The notes under the pieces are model-generated. The model did not search any database. It was not told where the DNA came from and saw only the letters and a program-made list of their open reading frames with translations. A program made the position numbers and the translations under genes. Positions 7,693-38,100 of a DNA stretch of 41,110 nt are shown piece by piece; position 1 is the stretch's first letter; every line of letters starts with the position of its first letter. The stretch is from Escherichia phage smaasur: sequence record MN850625.1; one strand, written 5' to 3'.

Positions 7693-8111
7693 TACGGTTT
7701 CTCCAAATCAATGAATCGGTACTCCTGAACATAAGGACGTACCATGTGGGAGTAACCGCACCAGCGCAACCCAGCTTGCCGGGCAGCGCGTTTGAGTTCG
7801 CGGAGGATGAGACGGGTCACTCCCCGGTTGCGATACTGGGGCCATACATACATGGCCATTACAACGGCGCACGGCCCCACATGAATATCGAACAGCTCAC
7901 CGAGATGAGCACAGCCCATGAGAGCACCGTCAGAATCATGGACGTACACATCTGTGCATCCGTTGGCGGTGGCATCATACATGGCGTCCACTATCACATC
8001 CCACGGTAAATCAGACCATTGGCGTTCATCCTGTATACCTTTGGCTACAGCAGTCCGAATGTCGATTGGCATCGTGGTGTGATGTATGTTGTCCACAACA
8101 GTTACTTTCAT
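7692..8111 (-). CDS. GNAT-family N-acetyltransferase (putative)
   Basis: 139 aa. AVVMAMYVWPQYRNRGVTRLILRELKRAARQAGL fits the GNAT beta4-alpha3 acetyl-CoA-binding pattern. Start ATG sits inside the repeated element ATGAAAGTAACTGTTGTG. Overlaps the upstream small gene by 1 nt (TAATG). Confidence 0.5.
   Translation of the reverse strand: MKVTVVDNIHHTTMPIDIRTAVAKGIQDERQWSDLPWDVIVDAMYDATANGCTDVYVHDSDGALMGCAHLGELFDIHVGPCAVVMAMYVWPQYRNRGVTRLILRELKRAARQAGLRWCGYSHMVRPYVQEYRFIDLEKP
8097..8111 (-). repeat. repeated element ATGAAAGTAACTGTT (copy 1, at the GNAT start codon)
   Basis: Exact 15-mer on the minus strand; extends to 18 nt (ATGAAAGTAACTGTTGTG, 8094-8111) shared with copy 4. Confidence 0.6.
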
Positions 8112-8376: not shown

Positions 8377-10809
8377 TTAGCAGAAGAATTTGGAGGATTT
8401 CTTGACCTCGTTGATATCCAACTGGCCCCGTGCTGGAGCTTCCTTAGAATATCTCACGGCAAGTTGTTGAATCGGGTCATTTTCCTCGTACATCTGCACG
8501 AATTTTTCACGGATGACTTTGTGCAGTAGACCTGCATGAGCTGCTGCAACACCGAACGAGTCATGAATGGATACCATGTACACCCCGTTATTCCACATCT
8601 CCCACAGGACTTTCGTCATGTGGCTGGCATCCATCGCATGTACAAAATTCGGAGCAATCGCAGCCGCGCATTTGCGACCGTCTGGCTTGTCGATGAACTC
8701 ACGCAGCTTGATGGCATGAACGCCCATCAGCTTGATACCCATAGTGGTCTCTTTGTGAGCCTGATACATGTTCACCACACGCAGACCAGACGGGGCAGTG
8801 AACTCCACATACTCACCGTTAGCCGCCGCCTCAGATGCGATAGCTTGCAGCCATGCCATCAGCTCAGCAGCCTTTGGCACCACGCGAGGAATTGCATCCC
8901 ACATGAACCCGGCGATGTACATTGCGCACTGGAACAGGGTGTACCCTTCCGGTAGCGGAGTGTTGTGCTCCCGTAAATACAGCGCATAGTAATCCACCAT
9001 GCCGTGGCGTGTCGCACCGTACACATAAGTCATCACAGGCTTCTTAGCCATACCGCGCTCTATGCCAGTCTGTATGAGCCACGAACCCAAGACAGTAGGG
9101 TTGGTTGCCTCTGCTTCCTTCAACGCCTCCAGAGCCGCCGTAGCGGTCTTAACGTAGATGTCTGCCTTACGTCCTACTGAATCAATCAGGTTAACCGCAG
9201 CCCCGCCCACCTCGTCACGCAGCATTGCTGAGAGATGTTGCAGACCTGAGCACGTCGCGTCCCACTGTGTCACCACACGGCACGGATACTCTTCCGGGTT
9301 CCCGCTATCCAGCGCACGCACCAGCTCTACCGCAGCCGCCCATGCACACAGTGGGCTGTCAGCCTCAGACCAGAATGAGTCGTATGCCTCTGGCAGACGG
9401 CAAGCCTCGCGCAGTCGCGGCATTGTCTTGTCCGTCCATGCCGCCCGGTCTTCAAAGTCTGTGGAGTCATAGCCGAAGCAGTTGGCCACATGAACCTTCA
9501 ACCAGAACAGACCCTCCTTACCAAGCGGCACCGGGTCAGCCAGCTCAAGCAAAGCACGAATCGCGTCAATGCCTTGCGGGTTCAGGGATGTGGCATAGTA
9601 GCAACGGCCACGAGTGTCGGCGTATGTCGGCAGGTAGATTCGCTCGTACACTTTGTACTGCTCAGCCTCACGCAGCGCACTGCTCAGCGCCTGAATCTGC
9701 GTGGTGAACTTCTTCATGTCGTTGTGGTAAATGCGAGTCTTAACCTTGAACTCGTGCGCCTCAGCGTCCATGCGCTGCTGCATCTCAGCCGGGAACTTGC
9801 TGATGTACTGGCCGAACGTTACGCCTTCCGGGATAGTGAACGGCAGCTTAGGCTCCACTGGAGCAACAGGCAACCCCATCACCCCGGTTCTGTTGGCTTG
9901 TAAGAACTCCAGCACCATCTTGTTCACGCGGAACGGAACGTTTGACAGCATCATGCACGGCTCAATCATCGGTCGTGGGTCAATACCTAACTTGCGATAC
10001 GCCGGGTGCTTGAGCTTGCTGATTACCGCATACGTTGCCGCCTGCCCCGGAGAGTGCCACATACCGCCAAAGCCATTCGCACTGATTTGAGCTGGCGGTA
10101 TAATCAGCGGCGGGTAGCAACTGATGCCGAGGTGTGGCAGCTTCATCCAATCCTCAAGCATGATGAGCACATCGTCATGCAGAGCGAAGTGCGCAGTCGC
10201 CCGGTTCTTCAAGCTACCGCCCACTCGGACAGTCTTGACCAGACCAGTCGGCTCGACAGCACGCATCATCAACTTGCCGATTGTGATGAGCGCACGCTGT
10301 GGCAGGCTTTCAATCTCGACACCAACATTTGCCGAGGCAGCGCGTGCCTTGTTGTAGATGTGGTTTGGCGACTTAGACTTGGACTTATTCACGTCGCGGC
10401 GAACCCTCTCCATATACGCAGCCTCACGCTTACCAGCCCGCTCAGCTCGTGCATAGACTACCTCAGCCATCATTGCCTGCCCCATCTCGCGGAGCAGTTG
10501 AGTCACGGCGGTACGCCCGGTCGCGCCGGACACCGCCATGCTCAGGGCCAGAGACGCGCAGGTCTTGGCCCCGACTTCACGAAGGTACGTGCGGTACTGC
10601 GCACCGAACCCACGAGTAGTTTCGTTCAGGATATCCAGCATTGCAGCTTCGACAGTGGGGTATGCCTCAACCATCGCTCGCTGCAACAGTGGCACCGCCG
10701 AGGCGCGGCCTGAGTCTATCGCATCTCGTACGTTATCTAACCAGCCTGCCCGGTGACGGGCACGCGCCTCTTCTTCCAGTCGAATCTGTTCTGCCAGCAA
10801 ATCCATCAC
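8377..10809 (-). CDS. T7-like single-subunit DNA-directed RNA polymerase
   Basis: 810 aa. [20 protein letters not shown] matches T7 RNAP motif A region [32 protein letters not shown]...SIHDSFG matches T7 motif C region PNFVHSQDGSHL...IHDSFGT. Confidence 0.95.
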   Translation of the reverse strand: [810 protein letters not shown]

Positions 10810-22296: not shown

Positions 22297-22317
22297 ATCT
22301 CCTCCGATGTTGTGCAA

Positions 22318-22332
22318 TACAGTTACTTTCAT
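22318..22332 (-). repeat. repeated element ATGAAAGTAACTGTa (copy 3, 14/15 match)
   Basis: On the minus strand, 22 nt upstream of the ATG at 22296 of the small membrane protein gene. Confidence 0.55.
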
Positions 22333-26447: not shown

Positions 26448-26837
26448 TTACTCCACTACCCAAAACAGTTCACCGTCATACGTCCAAGCGGTATGTTGCC
26501 CGGCTTCCATCTGCTCGCCTGTTTTGCTGACCAGCTTGCCAGCAGGCTTGCCCGGATACGGTGAATCCATGAAGATTGCATCATTGTCATCGGTCACTAC
26601 CATGATGCAGTCCTGTTCAAGAGCCTTACAGAACAGCGTAACAGCCTGCCTGATTTCGTAGATTCCATCGACGGGAAAGACCATGCTCAGCTCGTACTGA
26701 TTGTCGAACTTGCCCGTCAGTGTGACCGGAATCACTCCGAACATATCCTGCACCGTTCGCAGTGCCTTGCAATGTAGCGCCAGATTAACACACTCAGCGT
26801 TATTCGGACGATATGCGCTTGCATAGATACGGTACAT
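26448..26837 (-). CDS. hypothetical early protein (first gene downstream of the early promoter cluster)
   Basis: 129 aa; preceded by CTGGAGAAATAACT-ATG. Lies ~550-700 nt downstream of the sigma70-like promoters, giving a long leader comparable to the T7 early transcript. Confidence 0.5.
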   Translation of the reverse strand: MYRIYASAYRPNNAECVNLALHCKALRTVQDMFGVIPVTLTGKFDNQYELSMVFPVDGIYEIRQAVTLFCKALEQDCIMVVTDDNDAIFMDSPYPGKPAGKLVSKTGEQMEAGQHTAWTYDGELFWVVE

Positions 26838-27369
26838 AGTTATTTCTCCAGTTATTGGCTATTTTCAGGTGGATAGTGAACCCATTGTGACGCGCCGTAC
26901 AGTCTGCACTCAGTGGCATTGATTGGCTTGTCGGATTCACTACCCTGAAAAATCGCCCCGCCCATTTCGCGCTGTGGATATTGTCTGCATCCACTCTCAG
27001 GAGTCTTCCAGCAGTCCGTCGCGTATCTTGCTCACCGTTGCCAGCTAACAAGCCGTTTGACTACCCACCCGCTATACTCCGCGCCTTATAAGACGTTCGG
27101 GATTGTACTGATACTGCGCTGCGTCTATCGCGCTTCTCCGTTCCCATGCACCGGGCGCTACCCCTATTGCCTTTCGGCGGTGCCTCACCCAGTTCCAACC
27201 TGCGGCGGATACCCAGTGAGCCGTGACACTACGCGGCCAGTTTGCGTTCACTCAGAGCAGGATGCTTTCCATCCTTTCAACTCGGTGCTGATTTCATCAT
27301 ATCTGAATCAGCTTGTCAACTACTTTTTACTTCTGACTGACTGGCTTGCTACCCGTCAATCTGGAGCGT

Positions 27370-27398
27370 ATTACAGCATACTCATTTCACCTTGTCAA
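27370..27398 (-). promoter_or_regulatory. candidate host sigma70 early promoter (minus strand TTGACA-17-TGTAAT)
   Basis: On the minus strand: TTGACA (plus 27393-27398), exact 17-nt spacer, TGTAAT (plus 27370-27375). Points toward the early genes. Confidence 0.5.
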
Positions 27399-27506
27399 CC
27401 GTTTTATTCAGCGCCCATTCTGAGATGAATAACCCGTACCAGTTCGCCTGCGTGTGTTTTAACGTCTTTATCAATGACTGTTTAGCTTGCTGGCTGACGT
27501 GGAAGC

Positions 27507-27535
27507 ATTACAGCATAGTGAGCTTGCCTTGTCAA
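27507..27535 (-). promoter_or_regulatory. candidate host sigma70 early promoter (minus strand TTGACA-17-TGTAAT), second copy
   Basis: Same architecture: TTGACA (plus 27530-27535), 17-nt spacer, TGTAAT (plus 27507-27512). A weaker third candidate is TTGACA (27313-27318) with TGAAAT (27290-27295). Confidence 0.5.
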
Positions 27536-27779
27536 TACACTCCAGATTGTTAAAGAGCATGGCTAACCGTCTAGCCCACCGTGTAACGATGTTCTGTTAC
27601 CCGGCGATGAGAATTACAGCAAATCACAAAGAGCATTGCAAGTATTATTTTCACTGAATACCTCAAATAGTGGATAAGTTATTGTATTCATTGATAATAA
27701 ATATTTGATTGAATAGGTTATTGCATAGCTTACATACAGCAGAATAACCGTAAATAAATCCTTTTAAATCAATGAGTAA

Positions 27780-27794
27780 ATGAAAGTAACTGTT
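27780..27794 (+). repeat. repeated element ATGAAAGTAACTGTT (copy 4, inverted, at the edge of the T-depleted terminus tract)
   Basis: Exact 15-mer on the plus strand, opposite to all genes; 18-nt identity with copy 1 (ATGAAAGTAACTGTTGTG). Sits at the junction between an AT-rich segment (27640-27780) and the T-depleted tract. Confidence 0.6.
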
Positions 27795-27799
27795 GTGTA

Positions 27800-28380
27800 T
27801 AGCAGTAGCGATACGCAGCGTAAGCGACGCAGCACGCAGTGCGATAGCGGAGCGCGGAGCGGAGCGAATGAGATACGGAGTAGCGAATGAGTGAACGCGA
27901 ACGGATAGCAAGTATCAGAGTGTTACACAGTACACACAGCAGACACACAGCGACGCGATGAGCTGGAGGAGCTGGAGCGCAGGCGGTAGCGCACAGAGTA
28001 CACCGTACACAGTACCGCACAGACACACACAGCAAGCGAGCGCAGGCAGCAGCAGCAACGCACAGAGCAAGCGAGCAAAAGAGATAGATAGCCCCGCGCC
28101 CAGCCACCGACACACAGCAGCACCGCACAGCACAGCGCAGGCCAGCGCAGGCGCGTCCAGTGGTAGCAGTGGCGCAGCGCACAGCAGCAGGACACAGCAC
28201 CGCACAGCACGCCACACGGCAGACGATGAAACGGGCACGCGCGAGCTGTTACCGCACGCACGCGAGCAATACCGCACGCGCAGGCACACGCGCATAATGC
28301 GCACACGTCATGCACGCGCACGCGCACAGGCGTACGGGGGCGCAGGCGCTCCTTCGGGTCGAGGGAGGCCCACGCACAAA
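27800..28380. repeat. strongly T-depleted, degenerate short-repeat tract at the presumed genome terminus
   Basis: Plus strand is almost entirely A/C/G with reiterated CACAG/GCGCAG/CAGCAC units; my hand count gives about 8% T over 27841-28380, and 28021-28080 has none. Lies between the last late gene (endolysin, ends 28435) and the early promoters, where T7-like phages carry terminal repeats and short-repeat arrays. Confidence 0.6.
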
Positions 28381-28434
28381 TAGTCAATTTTCAAGCCGGG
28401 AAACGCCTGTTCTATGTCACAGCTTTCAATGCCC

Positions 28435-28971
28435 CTATAACGTCGCACAGTAAGCGCTACAGCGTTTTGCACGAGCAACCAAGGCATCCCTATACCGAAC
28501 GATTGTCGGGGCTGTAGAAGCCTTTAGGAACGCAATACGAAGGTCACAGATGGATGCTGCTGCGGAGTGAGGTTCCAGACGTTTGGCTGCTGCCACGGTT
28601 GCAGGGCCAATAACCCCGTCTTGTGCAACGCCGCATACCCGCTGTAGAGCTTTCGCCGCACGGCTGATACCGGAGTTGACACCGTAGTCGAACACGGCAC
28701 ATGCAATCGCAGGGTGTAGCTCGTCACCTTTGATGGGGTCGAAATACTCGGCCCGGTAGATAGCGTTGGCTTGCTCTTTGGTGAGCTGTTTGACAGGCAC
28801 ACAAATAGAGCCACCAAGCCCAGTAGGGACACCACAAATTCGGCCATCCAGTTTGCCATCACGAGCATCGCTAATTCCATGATTCGTTTCCCCTCCAGTG
28901 TCACCGGGCAGCTTGGTGTACCCGCCTTCTGCCAGCCCGGTGAACTTCATACAGATTTCAAAGTTAGTCAT
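28435..28971 (-). CDS. endolysin, glycoside hydrolase family 108-like with C-terminal peptidoglycan-binding region
   Basis: 178 aa. N-terminal FTGLAEGGYTKLPGDTGGETNHGIS matches the GH108 signature (EGGY...DxGGxTxxGI) as I recall it. Last gene before the terminus region. Confidence 0.7.
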   Translation of the reverse strand: MTNFEICMKFTGLAEGGYTKLPGDTGGETNHGISDARDGKLDGRICGVPTGLGGSICVPVKQLTKEQANAIYRAEYFDPIKGDELHPAIACAVFDYGVNSGISRAAKALQRVCGVAQDGVIGPATVAAAKRLEPHSAAASICDLRIAFLKASTAPTIVRYRDALVARAKRCSAYCATL

Positions 28972-30693: not shown

Positions 30694-32453
30694 TAGCGGA
30701 TTCTCCGACGAGTGCCACGGACACGCTTATGACTGCGCCACTTCGAGTCGTCGTACCCCATAGGGTTGGCAACAAACTCACGAGCGGCGGCCACTTCACG
30801 CTTTTGGGCCTCTTCATGTTCGTCTTGCTGGAGTACCTCGGCGTGGAGATACACGGCAGCGGATAGGGTTTCAATGCGGTCATCGTGCGGGATGGAGCCT
30901 TTGTCCTGCGTCAAGTTCTGCATCTGCCAGAACAGGCTGTATTCCCGGCCACCGTTGTTCATGGCCCGGCACAGGCGCAGGTCTTCCTCAACAACCGACC
31001 AGTGGATTACCACGCGGTGGCGCTGGAGGATAGGACTCAACCGATTGATGATACGCACTTCTTTCTGGCCGCTGGAGTAAATACCCTCACAGCCGATTGT
31101 CAGTCCTTGACGCTTAATCTCACCACGGTACATGTTGGTCACGGCACCGTGGCCCATGTTGTCCTCAATGGTGATGTGCTGGACACCCAGCTCGTGGCAC
31201 CACTCTACCGCCGCCTTGATGTTCTCTTCCGTCTGGCCGCCGTGGTAGACGTGCATACCGATGACGTGGATAAACGGGCCGATAGAAGCTGTGGCGAAGA
31301 GAACGGATTCGTCCGACCCACCACCAGCAGGGTCAAGAAACGCCTTGGTATTCGTGAATGGTACATACGTCTCAGAGAAGTCAGCGGCCAGATATAGCTG
31401 GGCGCGAGCGAGTGGGAAGTCCATTGGCAGCTCGGCCAAGTGACGCGAATGATTCGACCAGTGCAGATACTCCGGCGCAGACTGCGGCGAGCCGTGGAAG
31501 AAGATAACATCCCGGATATGCAGAGTCTGTTTCAGTGCGTCTGACAGTGATGTGTCCAGCATGAACTGTAGCTGGAAGCCTGCCTGCTGGTAGTCTCGTT
31601 CGTTCTGTAGCTGCTTCTCTTCGGAGTAACGCTGAGGGTCAGTCTGCGCACCACGGTTCCCAAGGATACCGTAACCAGTACGCAATTCAGGGTGGCCATC
31701 CATCTTCTGCTTAATCCACGGGGCCAGACAGCCGCCGTAGCGTTCTTCTTCCTCAACCGTTGGGAAACGACCGGGCCAGATGCGAACGTCGAAGCCACGC
31801 TGCGGGAGCGTGTTGTAGATGGAGTCCTGAGTCTGTGGCGTGCCGAGGTACAGAATCTCTGCACCGTCGTTGGCGATAGCCGCGAACTCTTTGGTCAGGG
31901 TGTTGATACGGGCGCGGTTGGCAGGAGAGCTACCGTTACTGGTAGTCTCCACGTCATCGGCAATCAACAGCGATACGTGGTTCCCCTGCAACTGGCCGAA
32001 GATACCGACCGCTTTGACAGAGGGCTGTTTGTCAGGAATACGAAATGCGTGGTGTACGTCGAAACCGTCTGTATAAGAGGTACGTGCGCCAGCGCGAGTT
32101 TCAGGGCGCAGCCATTCCAGTCTGTCCCATTGCATAATGGCAGACACGATGGCGTGCGAGAGCGTACCCGCATAATCGTCAGAACCGGATACCAGCAGCA
32201 CGGTGGCGTTAGGCATCTGGACGAACTCATACAGGGCACGGGCAATGCCGATGGTGGACTTAGCCTCACCGCGCTGAGCCATGACGCACTTGTTCTTGAG
32301 CGTCCGGTCGGCCATGTAGCGGCCAATATCGAGCTGCATTTCAGTGAGGTCAAAGCCCAGCCATGCGAAGTAGTCATGCAGGAACAGCGGGAAGTTGTTC
32401 TCGTAATGGGCGCGAACAATTCCTGCCATCACCATGCGGCGTTGTAAATCCAT
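30693..32453 (-). CDS. terminase large subunit (T7 gp19-like)
   Basis: 586 aa, the same length as T7 gp19. [26 protein letters not shown] matches T7 [45 protein letters not shown] matches [32 protein letters not shown] matches ALAHDDRLDALALGI. Confidence 0.95.
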   Translation of the reverse strand: [586 protein letters not shown]

Positions 32454-35137: not shown

Positions 35138-38100
35138 TATTCGCCCTTAACTGCTTCGTTGAGTGCTCGGACACCCGGCACAATGGAAATGAGTGGGAGT
35201 GCTTGTATGATGTTACCAGCAGTCTTGCGAGCATCATGTACAGCTTGGTCTGTGTCTCCAGTCAGCAAGTCGCCAGCCGTCGCAGTAGCAGAGCCAGCAA
35301 TACCGTACATGCGGTCAAGGAACAGCAGACCCGGCGCACCAAAGCTGCGCTGCTGTCCAGTCAGGACACCAGTGAACTCGGAGGCGAAGCCAATGGCACC
35401 GAGATAGTTCAGTGCTTGGCCAGCCAGCGCACCAATAGGTCGCTTATCATCAAAGCCCTTGCCAGAGATAACATTGTTCGCAGCCGTAGCCATCATCGCC
35501 AGCGGATACTGGTAAGCCATAAGCGTAGCCATCCCACGGGCACCTTCACGGTTCCAAGTACCCACCAGCGTCTTGTTGTGCGTGGCCGCTACGAAGCGAC
35601 GGAACGTAAACAGGAACTTACCGAGGGTACTGAACTCAGCGAATGCAGGCAGCTCGCCCACACGGGCGCGTACGATAGCGTCATCCATAGCGTTCATCAT
35701 AACAATGCGGGAGCGGTTGAATACGCCCTCATCCCACGCATCCGGCTTAGTCCCGGACTTGGCCACTTCCTTGCGGATATCAGCCAGCAGCGCATCGTTA
35801 GCGCCATACGTCTTCATTGCAGCGATAGCCTTCGCATCACCCTCAGCAGCCTTACGCAGCGTCTGCATAACCAGTGCGGCGTTGGTGCGGGTCTGGTGGA
35901 AGTGGATGTATTTCTGCATGTTGATGAACATCGTGGCATCACGTACGTGCTCAAGACGCATAACCCACGGAGACTTATCCGCAGAGAACATATCTTCATA
36001 GTGCTGCAAGATAGGACGCATACGAATATCACTCGCCACAGCAGCCGTAAGAGCTTCCTCAGTGTCGAGAGCCAATTGGCGTCCCTCCGCAGTAGATGCT
36101 CGCATCTGCTTAAATAGTGCGCGTGCTTCTGGAATTGTACGCATCATGGCGCGAAATGTATTGACCGCCCCGAAACGCTGCATCATCGTACCGTATTCGA
36201 CCAACTGCCACAAACCAGAAGCAGCCAAACCAGTGGCCTGAGTCAGTGCAGAGAGTTGTCGCATGAACTGCGGCATCTCTTCACCTACTGGCGCACCCAA
36301 GTAATAGCTGATGATGTTGTCGTATTGGTCGAGAGCCTGACGACGTGCAGTACCGTCCGGGATAGATTTGGCCAGAGCCTCACGAGCTGCTGCGCGTTCG
36401 GCGTCAGTACCCAAACCAGCCTCATGCAGAGCCAGCCGCCCCGTAATGCGACGGTTATAGCTGTCCATCATGCTGGCGATGCTGTCATCGAACAGGTCAC
36501 GCACCTGCAAGTTAGGGCCGAGCTGGTGCATCATATCAATGTTGATACGCGCTTTAAGCATTGGCGCTCTACCAGAATCCTCTCCGGCTTCACGAAGGAG
36601 TGCTGACGCACGGGCCTTGGCAGCCTCGTCGAATCCCTTCGCGTTGTTGATAATTTCGAGCAGCTCATCGCGGCCCTCCTTGTTGATGATATGGCCGGAG
36701 TTGTCGATACCGTAACCTTTACGGCGAGCACGCTCTACCATCGCATGTGCAATGACGTTGGCAGTGGGGCGGTCAGAGCCGATACCACGCTGGACAGCGG
36801 TGGTCATCTGCTTCATGAATGCTTTCTTGCCAAGCAGTTGCTCAGCCTGCTCAACTTTGGTCACGTTCATCCGGCGCGGGTAGTAGTACGGGTTCTTCTC
36901 GACGAAGCCCGGCTCAACCATACCCTTACGCTCCAGCTCCCGGCCCACGGCGCGAGAGTATTCGCCCAGTCTATCAGCAGCTTGTACCACGTTAGCATTG
37001 GCCCCTTTGAAGTTAGGGTCAATCATACGCCTGTCCAGCTCAAGTCGAACTGCTTGCTCGAACTCCTGCTGAGCACGGCGATAACCAACCGGGTCAAGGA
37101 ATCGACGCACGTTAGTCCAGCCGTCAGTATTCAAGGCGTGACGTAGGGTGTCCTCATACTGATTCAGCAGCACGCCAAAGCGAGCCTGAGTCTCACGCTG
37201 AATAGACGCAGCGGAGGTCATGTTGGGATTCAACGGGTCATCCAGTAGGCGTCCTGCGAGAGCACTGGATTCGTCGGAGTGCTGGCTGAAAGTCTTGAAC
37301 AGAGACCACTCAAGGAATGGGCGTTTGGGGTTTGTCTGCTCACCACGGCGTGCAAGGTCAAGACCGCGCTGTGCGGTGGCTCGGATAGACTCAGGAACCT
37401 CATCCACCTCCATAGCGCCACGACGACCACCGAAGCCCAGCGACATAGCCAGCGGAGACATAGCATTCTCCGGGTCGAACTGCGGTGGGTTGTTCGGGTC
37501 AATGCCATTGCGACGTTGCATCTCCGCTGCAAATTCCTCCGGCGACATATCGGCCAGCGAGCTCTGTACCGGAGCCGGGCGATAGAATGCAGTGGTGGCC
37601 GCCCCGTGCAGGGCAGCCGCAAAGATGATTTCGTTCTGAGACACTGGGCGTGCTTCATTACCCACCGCTGTCATAGCAGCAGCAGTTGAAGCTGCACCGA
37701 CAGCGGCGGTTCCAAGGCGACCAAGTTTCAGGGCAGTGCCTGCTCCCATCGAGAGCAGGTCGGTGGCGAGGTACAGCGGGTCAGCGAATTGCAGAACCGC
37801 GTTCATCACCGGGGCAGTGTGAGCCAACTGAGTACGCTCGCGCATCTCTTGGAGCTGCTGCGTACGCCAGTTGAACTCATCCATAGATTTGGATTTAAAC
37901 AGGAAAGTTCTGTCGTCTTCACCAATCGGGAACTGAACCTGCTGCAACGCCTCGTTGGGCTTGAAGTCAGGGTCAGCCTGAAAGGTAGGCTTGTTGAAGG
38001 CGGCATCAAAGAGCTGAGTGGTGTCCCAGTTCTTCACAGAAGCGCTCAACGCCGTGGCAATTGGAGTGGCTTCCAGTTCCTGCATCTTTTCGAACTGCTC

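Follow-up and report, generated by a model that had tools for sequence, protein, structure and literature searches.

The sequence record of Escherichia phage smaasur (MN850625.1), the whole 41,110 nucleotides (nt) of which form the window analyzed here, contains at approximately positions 27807–28383 a tract in which the plus strand is almost free of T. The long open reading frames (ORFs) of the window all lie on the minus strand, and it is therefore the coding (“top”) strand of the tract that is poor in A. Comparison with related phages makes it likely that in this tract we see a non-coding terminal module, composed of a direct terminal repeat and a leader, of a Bonnellvirus (phiKMV-like, T7 supergroup). 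The feature is of an ordinary class, that of terminal repeats with leaders in the T7 supergroup, and it is already annotated in the closest relative, phage J8-65. What remains of interest are an A-free composition found across the clade, the sequence signatures of the termini, and a very fast turnover by insertions and deletions (indels); the searchable literature yielded no account of the skew or of the termini of Bonnellviruses.

Homology to the Terminal Repeat and Leader of J8-65

The record of J8-65 (KM247287, type Bonnellvirus) carries an annotated repeat_region of 259 base pairs (bp) at either end, without any difference between the copies. The minus strand of the window from 28800 to 27000 is colinear with the right-unique sequence of J8-65, one copy of its repeat and its left-unique sequence, with 90.5% identity over 1762 columns. 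Nucleotide 1 of J8-65 aligns to window position 28362, at the cut CCTCCC/TCGAC, and nucleotides 1–259 correspond to 28362–28102. Given that the junction is colinear with J8-65 and that the terminal-repeat sequence is present in the window as a single copy, the window represents a circularly permuted assembly in which the repeat has collapsed; the left physical end of smaasur is probably at 28362, as judged by this homology. The A-poor tract starts approximately 20 nt before the inferred terminus and ends at 27807, and can be divided as follows:

28102–28362, minus strand: direct terminal repeat, one collapsed copy, assigned by homology to J8-65 nucleotides 1–259
27807–28101, minus strand: left-end unique leader, simple-sequence and A-poor (T-poor on the plus strand), A approximately 8%, an indel hot spot

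The initial annotation had suggested that the region is the terminal repeat and concatemer junction of a T7-like genome. Colinearity with J8-65, the terminus signature described below and the gene context uphold this for the location; as to extent, only ~260 bp of the tract is repeat, and ~295 bp is left-end leader. The tract is flanked by the last late (lysis) gene on one side and by the host-type early promoters and first early gene on the other, and the genome, transcribed in one direction, encodes a T7-type terminase. The nearest public relatives of the window are Bonnellviruses, phiKMV-like Autographiviridae, and it is ~93% identical to J8-65; the two phages have been reported to be 93% similar (PMC7552041). 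Smaasur and J8-65 share a homologous terminus box, repeat, leader and flanking genes, with ~90% identity across the junction, and differ in that the smaasur record holds a single collapsed copy in a permuted assembly and in nine tract indels of 1–20 nt. Probable ends and a terminal repeat are thus placed for smaasur and, by alignment, for approximately 20 relatives whose records are permuted circles. The ends of the relatives’ contigs were considered as evidence of physical ends and rejected, as they fall elsewhere than at the cut site.

Conserved Boxes and Terminus Signatures

The conserved boxes, most of them drawn from an alignment of 11 Bonnellvirus junctions, are:

28385–28400, minus strand: box CCCGGCTTGAAAATTG, invariant in the 11 Bonnellviruses, 23–38 nt before the terminus
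28358–28368, minus strand: terminus box CCTCCC/TCGAC, CCTCCCTCGAC, invariant in the 11 Bonnellviruses
28331–28340, minus strand: left-terminal signature CCCCCGTACG, a C-run that starts 23 nt from 28362
28260–28251, minus strand: island TGCGTGCGGT, invariant in the 11 Bonnellviruses
28150–28142, minus strand: island CTGCGCTGG, invariant in the 11 Bonnellviruses
28077–28095, minus strand: junction-like box GGGGCTATCTATCTCTTTT, resembling the T7 concatemer-junction pause/terminator
27780–27787, minus strand: tract-end box ACTTTCAT, with CTTTCAT invariant in 11 relatives; the plus strand reads ATGAAAGT

The position of the C-run was compared with that in ten phages whose ends are mapped or recorded. 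In T7 (L056), T3 (L060), SP6 (L059), K1-5 (L142), phiKMV (L058), LKA1 (L139), KP34 (L141), JG068 (L140), J8-65 (L001) and LIMEzero (L057), a run of four to eight C followed by (A/G)T begins 23–29 nt from the left end; in LIMElight the sequence near +25 is CCCC-AT. From this comparison the C-run looks like a general terminus signature of the Autographiviridae, and its match at +23 in smaasur supports the terminus at 28362. The C-run near left ends often forms a small C/G hairpin. Upstream of the terminus, LIMEzero and the loci L065 and L067 likewise have a sequence related to CCCGGCTTGAAAATTG in front of TCGAC. This box is a candidate terminase or packaging recognition element, or a terminator tail.

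The core of the junction-like box, TATCT(G/A)TCTCTTTT at ~28090–28077, is kept in all relatives; the box reads CTATCTATCTCTTTT in smaasur and TATCTGTCTCTTTT in most relatives. On the non-template strand ATCTGTT is a class II pause and termination signal of T7 RNA polymerase, and the concatemer junction is one natural copy of it (bioRxiv 10.1101/2021.01.11.426313; 10.64898/2026.02.12.705533). The right boundaries of known terminal repeats (marked by the slash) fall at CCCT/ATCTGTT in T7 and T3, at GGGCTA/TCTGTT in SP6, at the same motif in K1-5, and at GGGCA/TCTGTA in JG068. By analogy, the smaasur box may be where the phage RNA polymerase pauses, and may mark the right boundary of the repeat; beyond it a leader of ~270–295 bp extends down to 27807.

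Among the phages compared the boundary motifs fall into two classes, (C/G)CTA/TCTGT in T7, T3, SP6, K1-5 and JG068, and GC(T)/TGCCT(C/T)TT in phiKMV, LKA1, LIMElight (L143) and KP34. A further contig of otherwise window-type sequence (L151, Logan SRR36242718) carries ATCTGTC in place of ATCTATC, so the G/A difference segregates within the lineage. At ~9900–9915 in L127, a distant relative with 42% terminase identity, a perfect CCTATCTGTTACC, the T7 junction core, stands at the end of an A-poor tract. The altidsur sequence (L002 2942–2982; record 10232–10272) carries a “repeat_region” annotation of 41 nt that falls within its presumed terminal repeat. The C-run approximately 25 nt from the left end, the two classes of boundary box and the A-poor leader offer a means of finding termini in Autographiviridae assemblies without reads.

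Several points count against the identification of the tract as a terminal module, or against its details. Through homology, the placement of the ends leans on one GenBank annotation, that of J8-65, and the paper citing that record is silent on how its ends were determined. The smaasur box ATCTATC is two mismatches away from the ATCTGTT of T7, most relatives having ATCTGTC, and ATCTGTT is reported to allow no changes for the T7 polymerase; moreover, the box lies 10–25 nt past the repeat boundary annotated in J8-65. On account of these two deviations the pausing function is treated as conditional throughout. Lastly, neither Tandem Repeats Finder nor a repeat finder detected regular short-unit arrays flanking the terminal repeat in the T7 style. 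Toward the right end, too, no comparable repeat array is present; the endolysin stop codon is there just 72 nt away from the terminus. In T7 the short-repeat arrays that flank the terminal repetition reportedly bear the names SRL and SRR.

Composition and Short Repeats

The limits of the tract follow from a criterion of at most 12% T on the plus strand in 100-nt windows. On this strand T makes up 7.7% of 27800–28380, and a recount of the figures in the initial annotation (approximately 8% in 27841–28380 and zero in 28021–28080) gave 7.4% and 0%. Genome-wide, T on the plus strand has a mean of 23.3% with a standard deviation (sd) of 2.6% in 540-nt windows, and falls no lower than 17.2% outside the region of the tract. 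Of all T-free runs in the 41 kb, the top three, at 71, 66 and 56 nt, are located inside 28014–28226; the fourth has 32 nt. The AT skew has its maximum of +0.72 at the tract.

The short repeats noted at first sight are real as enriched words and do not form a regular array. CACAG occurs 15 times in the tract against 1.4 expected from composition-matched shuffles (shuffle maximum 7), CAGCA, GCGCA and CGCAC 13 times each, and GCGCAG seven times; AGCGAATGA has two copies in the tract and none in the rest of the genome. This enrichment is without periodicity, and Tandem Repeats Finder and the repeat finder returned from the tract only short degenerate arrays of 2–6 copies.

The dinucleotides AA, CC and GG are found in the tract at 0.31–0.49 of expectation, and CA and GC at ~1.65. 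Due to this depletion and enrichment, 67% of the steps in the tract alternate between purine and pyrimidine, against 53.4 ± 2.6% genome-wide (z = 9.7 against shuffles). The longest alternating run of the genome, of 20 nt, is at 28309–28328, within the following segment:

28253–28328, no strand assigned: alternating purine-pyrimidine (CG/CA)n segment, holding four of the eight longest alternating runs of the genome

A palindrome, GCGCAT-T-ATGCGC, is present inside this segment at 28290–28302. By its alternation, the (CG/CA)n segment is a candidate for a left-handed (Z-DNA) conformation under supercoiling.

Coding Capacity and RNA

Long ORFs are present on both strands of the tract, and relatives have been annotated with a “hypothetical protein” in this location: forsur_28, Kc261 QQM15444.1, ROV85 gp21–24 and a gene in the Logan contig L144. 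That the tract encodes such proteins is nonetheless extremely improbable. Each of the three minus-strand frames contains only 1–2 stop codons per 192 codons against ~7 expected, since a strand nearly devoid of A has almost no stop codons and all three frames are open at once. The translations are of low complexity, rich in Cys, Arg, Leu, Ala and Val, with 17% Cys. Most tract indels are not multiples of three (8 of 9 in comparison with J8-65, 8 of 11 with Lidtsur and 18 of 22 with forsur), and searches of Pfam and PHROGs with four tract ORFs gave no matches. The initial annotation had judged that no gene fits and that the apparent ORFs are artefacts of composition, and the frame-breaking indels and empty searches agree with it. 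The annotated “hypothetical proteins” in forsur, Kc261, ROV85 and the one Logan contig are probably artefacts as well, because the frames are broken by indels, domain matches are lacking and the strand is near-stopless; several database entries can thus be flagged as probably spurious. The annotations inside the A-poor tract of relatives are at L050 2002–2517, L051 877–1416, L053 1779–2526 and L144 3677–4225.

A leftward antisense ORF starting at 27780 was considered and rejected, as its length varies and it is cut to seven codons in 6 of the 11 relatives. The first seven codons of this antisense mini-ORF, MKV[TS][VI][VT], are kept in all 11 Bonnellviruses, its overall length not. The 17-mer TGAAAGTAACTGTTGTG at the tract end (27781–27797, plus strand) is identical to the coding-strand gene start at 8111 (8095–8111, minus strand, MKVTVVDN) and nearly identical to that at 22332 (22316–22332, minus strand, MKVTVLHN).

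A structured non-coding RNA transcribed from the tract, which had been named as an alternative, found no support and is very improbable. The length of the intergenic region, a weak promoter-like site at 27671–27698 on the plus strand that points into the tract, and the presence in T7 and T3 of a host promoter, A0, that points leftward at the corresponding place would favor it. However, the best Rfam scores with the tract were 19–22 bits (E = 0.6–0.75) against gathering scores of 65–100, no inverted repeats of at least 11 nt were found, and a conserved fold is not compatible with indel turnover of this speed. Early transcription of LUZ19, a phiKMV-like phage, begins only at promoters downstream of the equivalent tract (PMC3604761).

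Turnover and Evolution

Between the two Bonnellvirus sequence types, aligned columns are 58–62% identical in the tract and 78–80% identical in the flanks, and coding-strand A in the tract is 6.8–8.9% across all 11 Bonnellviruses. Turnover on a shorter scale was followed in nine further genomes with an identical endolysin protein. Among these the tract varies in length from 530 to 612 nt, and the share of indel columns is 38% in the leader and 15% in the repeat, compared with 2.3% in the promoter region next to the tract. Indels can be as long as 54 nt and are seen to add or remove neighboring short units; the residues gained or lost are 5–6% A, and the fraction of substituted columns is not above that of the flank. 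Almost no variation is seen in the ~100 nt that open the repeat or in the ~80 nt that close the leader. Since the indels are of A-free neighboring units and substitutions are not raised, the sequences show that the low complexity arises proximately from slippage, or from unequal exchange, between short units that lack A, the words favored in this turnover being TG, CTG, GTG and GCG.

In its length polymorphism among near-identical genomes, its indels of neighboring units and its low complexity, the tract resembles microsatellite-like slippage regions; it differs from them in having no single repeat unit, in being bounded by invariant boxes that are presumed to be functional, and in its location at a genome terminus. 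We give next to no credence to the notion that it is an artefact, in which low-complexity sequence was mis-assembled at a coverage anomaly. Several related records and contigs do start or stop in or beside the tract, but the tract, its boxes and their order are the same in more than 20 independent assemblies or isolates from varied laboratories and hosts.

Distribution of the Skew Across the Clade

The length and purity of the skew had been described as unusual, a view that the comparison with other phages does not sustain: it is odd only against T7 and T3, and phiKMV has ~800 bp at 4–11% A, with LKA1 and LIMEzero similar. The A-poor stretches of the coding strand, counted from the left end, are:

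phiKMV: 1–800, 4–11% A per 100 nt (repeat of 414 bp)
LKA1: 1–400
LIMEzero: 100–600
LIMElight: 100–350
KP34: 100–300
SP6, K1-5 and JG068: weaker
T7: ~100–170 only
T3: none

The same A-poor arrangement is found in metagenomic relatives with 42–86% terminase identity. Across the sequences compared, an A-poor left end is thus typical of the phiKMV-like group and unusual only with respect to T7 and T3, which exposes a compositional rule at phage genome ends that holds clade-wide. GTG, CTG, TGC and GCT are consistently enriched and homopolymers depleted in the A-poor left ends across genera, and beyond TG-containing words no shared motif or protein-binding motif was found in them. The enterobacterial phages show purine-pyrimidine alternation, and phiKMV and LKA1 lack it.

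In phiKMV, LKA1, LIMEzero, LIMElight and KP34, as in smaasur, the repeat and 100–400 nt more are A-poor, the host promoters follow, and TG-, CTG- and GTG-type words are enriched. The left ends of phiKMV and LKA1 differ from that of smaasur in having no sequence similarity to it and in their boundary motif, of the GC(T)/TGCCT(C/T)TT class, as well as in the lack of alternation. T7 and T3 share with smaasur the position between the last late gene and host-type promoters, the C-run approximately 25 nt from the left end, the T7-type terminase, a right repeat boundary beside a box that resembles (C)TATCTGT and a non-coding low-complexity leader after the left repeat. In T7, too, one base is depleted on the coding strand (G is 10–12% at 201–400), but the T7 leader is composed of regular CCTAAAG-containing units and is G-poor and A-rich, whereas that of smaasur has no regular unit and is missing A. 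The repeats of T7 and T3 measure 160 and 231 bp and are A-poor over ~70 nt at most; further differences are that the smaasur box departs from ATCTGTT and that smaasur has no right-end repeat array.

Origin of the A-Poverty

Two explanations of the skew have to be weighed. We lean slightly toward the first, self-perpetuating slippage under weak constraint, for example by preferential expansion of uninterrupted A-free units. Against it stands the fact that unbiased slippage alone cannot keep A at 8% in genera with no sequence in common, so that a bias of expansion toward pure repeats, or selection, is needed in addition. The second, to which we give somewhat less than an even chance, is direct selection for a leader that is A-free, signal-free or strand-polar.

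Selection, in particular of the A-free coding strand itself, is favored by the sharp placement of the skew, which begins within ~20 nt of the inferred terminus, by the maintenance of 7–9% A in the 11 Bonnellviruses in spite of ~40% divergence, and by its recurrence in genera without sequence similarity. It is also favored by what is expected of mutation. From established chemistry, the known spectra of damage to single strands are expected to leave more coding-strand A at a resected left end and not less, and a simple mutational origin of the A-poverty is thereby argued against. In a test of strand symmetry, derived changes of G or C had produced coding-strand A 16 times and T 53 times in the tract, against 33 and 25 times in the flank, and this asymmetry points the same way; however, it shrinks to 4:10 and then to 3:5, neither being significant, under filters against near-gap columns and clustered changes, and repeat misalignment may therefore explain the unfiltered signal. 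Sites for EcoKI and EcoBI, GATC and promoter-like sites are all missing from the tract, which would suit selection against signals, yet GC-only palindromes are commoner in the tract than elsewhere (43 against 30.5 per window). Also speaking against selection, the next ~960 bp, which would likewise enter before S-adenosylmethionine (SAM) lyase is made, are normal in composition, the folding energy of the repeat is as its GC content predicts, Chi-like words are not enriched, no shared motif readable by a protein was found, and T7 and T3 do without such a tract.

That the A-free coding strand is itself selected, as a three-letter design, we consider rather unlikely. In one version the design would bar signals that need A as well as T on one strand from the first-entering DNA and the junction (sigma-70 -10 elements, ATG, stop codons, A/T palindromes and adenine-methylating restriction sites); in another it would provide a strand-polar cue for the terminase, the ejection machinery or the primase, a T-free lagging-strand template excluding priming that starts with ATP. 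More doubtful still is the proposal that A-poverty over the repeat and leader is a selected design common to the phiKMV-like podoviruses with a mechanical role at the genome end. Were it correct, the A-free end might orient or pace the terminase or the ejection machinery, might keep the first-entering DNA clear of adenine-dependent recognition signals, or might block priming on the T-free strand and so leave the repeat single-stranded for concatemer formation.

A number of specific candidates were tried and rejected. Single strands free of structure, as an aid to annealing, are not supported, the repeat folding at -20 to -22 kcal per 100 nt as 69% GC predicts; by single-strand folding only the leader is ~2 sd less structured than expected. 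General avoidance of restriction sites or palindromes does not apply, as 4-mer palindromes, all of them GC-only, are commoner in the tract than in the background. Protection from RecBCD by Chi or Chi-like sequences was discarded with 0–2 near-Chi words per tract against ~1 expected, and a T7-style strand bias of EcoP15I sites with 73 against 61, which is no bias. A T7-like phage promoter at the tract end was rejected too: TCACTATAG is present in some relatives, and smaasur has neither CACTATAG nor ACTATAG anywhere. Nor is the remaining A concentrated in functional boxes, accounting for 6.4% of conserved columns and 8.7% of variable ones.

Proposed Working Model

The position of the tract, its homology, conserved boxes, non-coding status, indel turnover and clade-wide skew are observed, and a sequence of events can be proposed around them by analogy with T7. 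In replicating concatemers the tract would form the junction between genome units. Late in infection, phage RNA polymerase reading through the repeat would pause or stop at the box at 28095–28077, and the T7-type terminase would cut at CCTCCC/TCGAC (the slash marking the cut), the repeat being duplicated such that a copy is found at both ends of the packaged genome. On infection, a module of ~550 bp with no gene or promoter would enter the cell first, followed by the four host-type promoters, 720–1070 bp from the end and ahead of the SAM lyase gene, and SAM lyase would be the first product. In LUZ19, early transcription comes only from host-type promoters at 913–1248, downstream of the equivalent tract (PMC3604761).

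Flanking Genes and Other Features

The features on the two sides of the tract are:

28435–28971, minus strand: endolysin gene, the last late gene, of family GH108 (Pfam Glyco_hydro_108, E = 1.5e-21)
27642–27806, no strand assigned: AT-rich spacer from the leader to the promoters, GC ~30–38%, conservation 80–88%
27291–27641, minus strand: four clustered sigma-70-type early promoters, TTG(A/C)(C/A)A-N17-TG(T/A)AAT, 720–1070 nt from the inferred left end
26448–26837, minus strand: SAM lyase (T3-type anti-restriction SAMase), the first early gene (Pfam S-AdoMet_lyase, E = 1.4e-24)

The endolysin protein is 100% identical to that of J8-65, and the J8-65 record labels its counterpart of the SAM lyase gene as SAMase. 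The T7-terminase nuclease domain (Terminase-T7) is carried by a 586-amino-acid ORF at 32453–30693 on the minus strand. The promoter pattern has four matches in the whole genome, all at 27641–27291 in the interval from the tract to the SAM lyase gene, and the four promoters are kept in all relatives. They share TTGACA/TTGCAA-N17-TG(T/A)AAT with TGC or TGA just ahead (for example, TGCTGTAAT), and their -10 element has G in place of the most conserved A of the sigma-70 consensus.

Chi sequences (GCTGGTGG) are found eight times on the coding strand of the window (at 35569, 33649, 31328, 30057, 24168, 18054, 4991 and 3044) and not on the other; this bias is mostly compositional, as Markov models of oligonucleotide usage predict 4–5 against ~1. 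Over the whole window GATC and CCWGG are both absent, ~156 being expected for GATC, and CTAG is reduced to six copies where ~156 are expected, which suggests strong genome-wide avoidance of Dam/Dcm-type sites.

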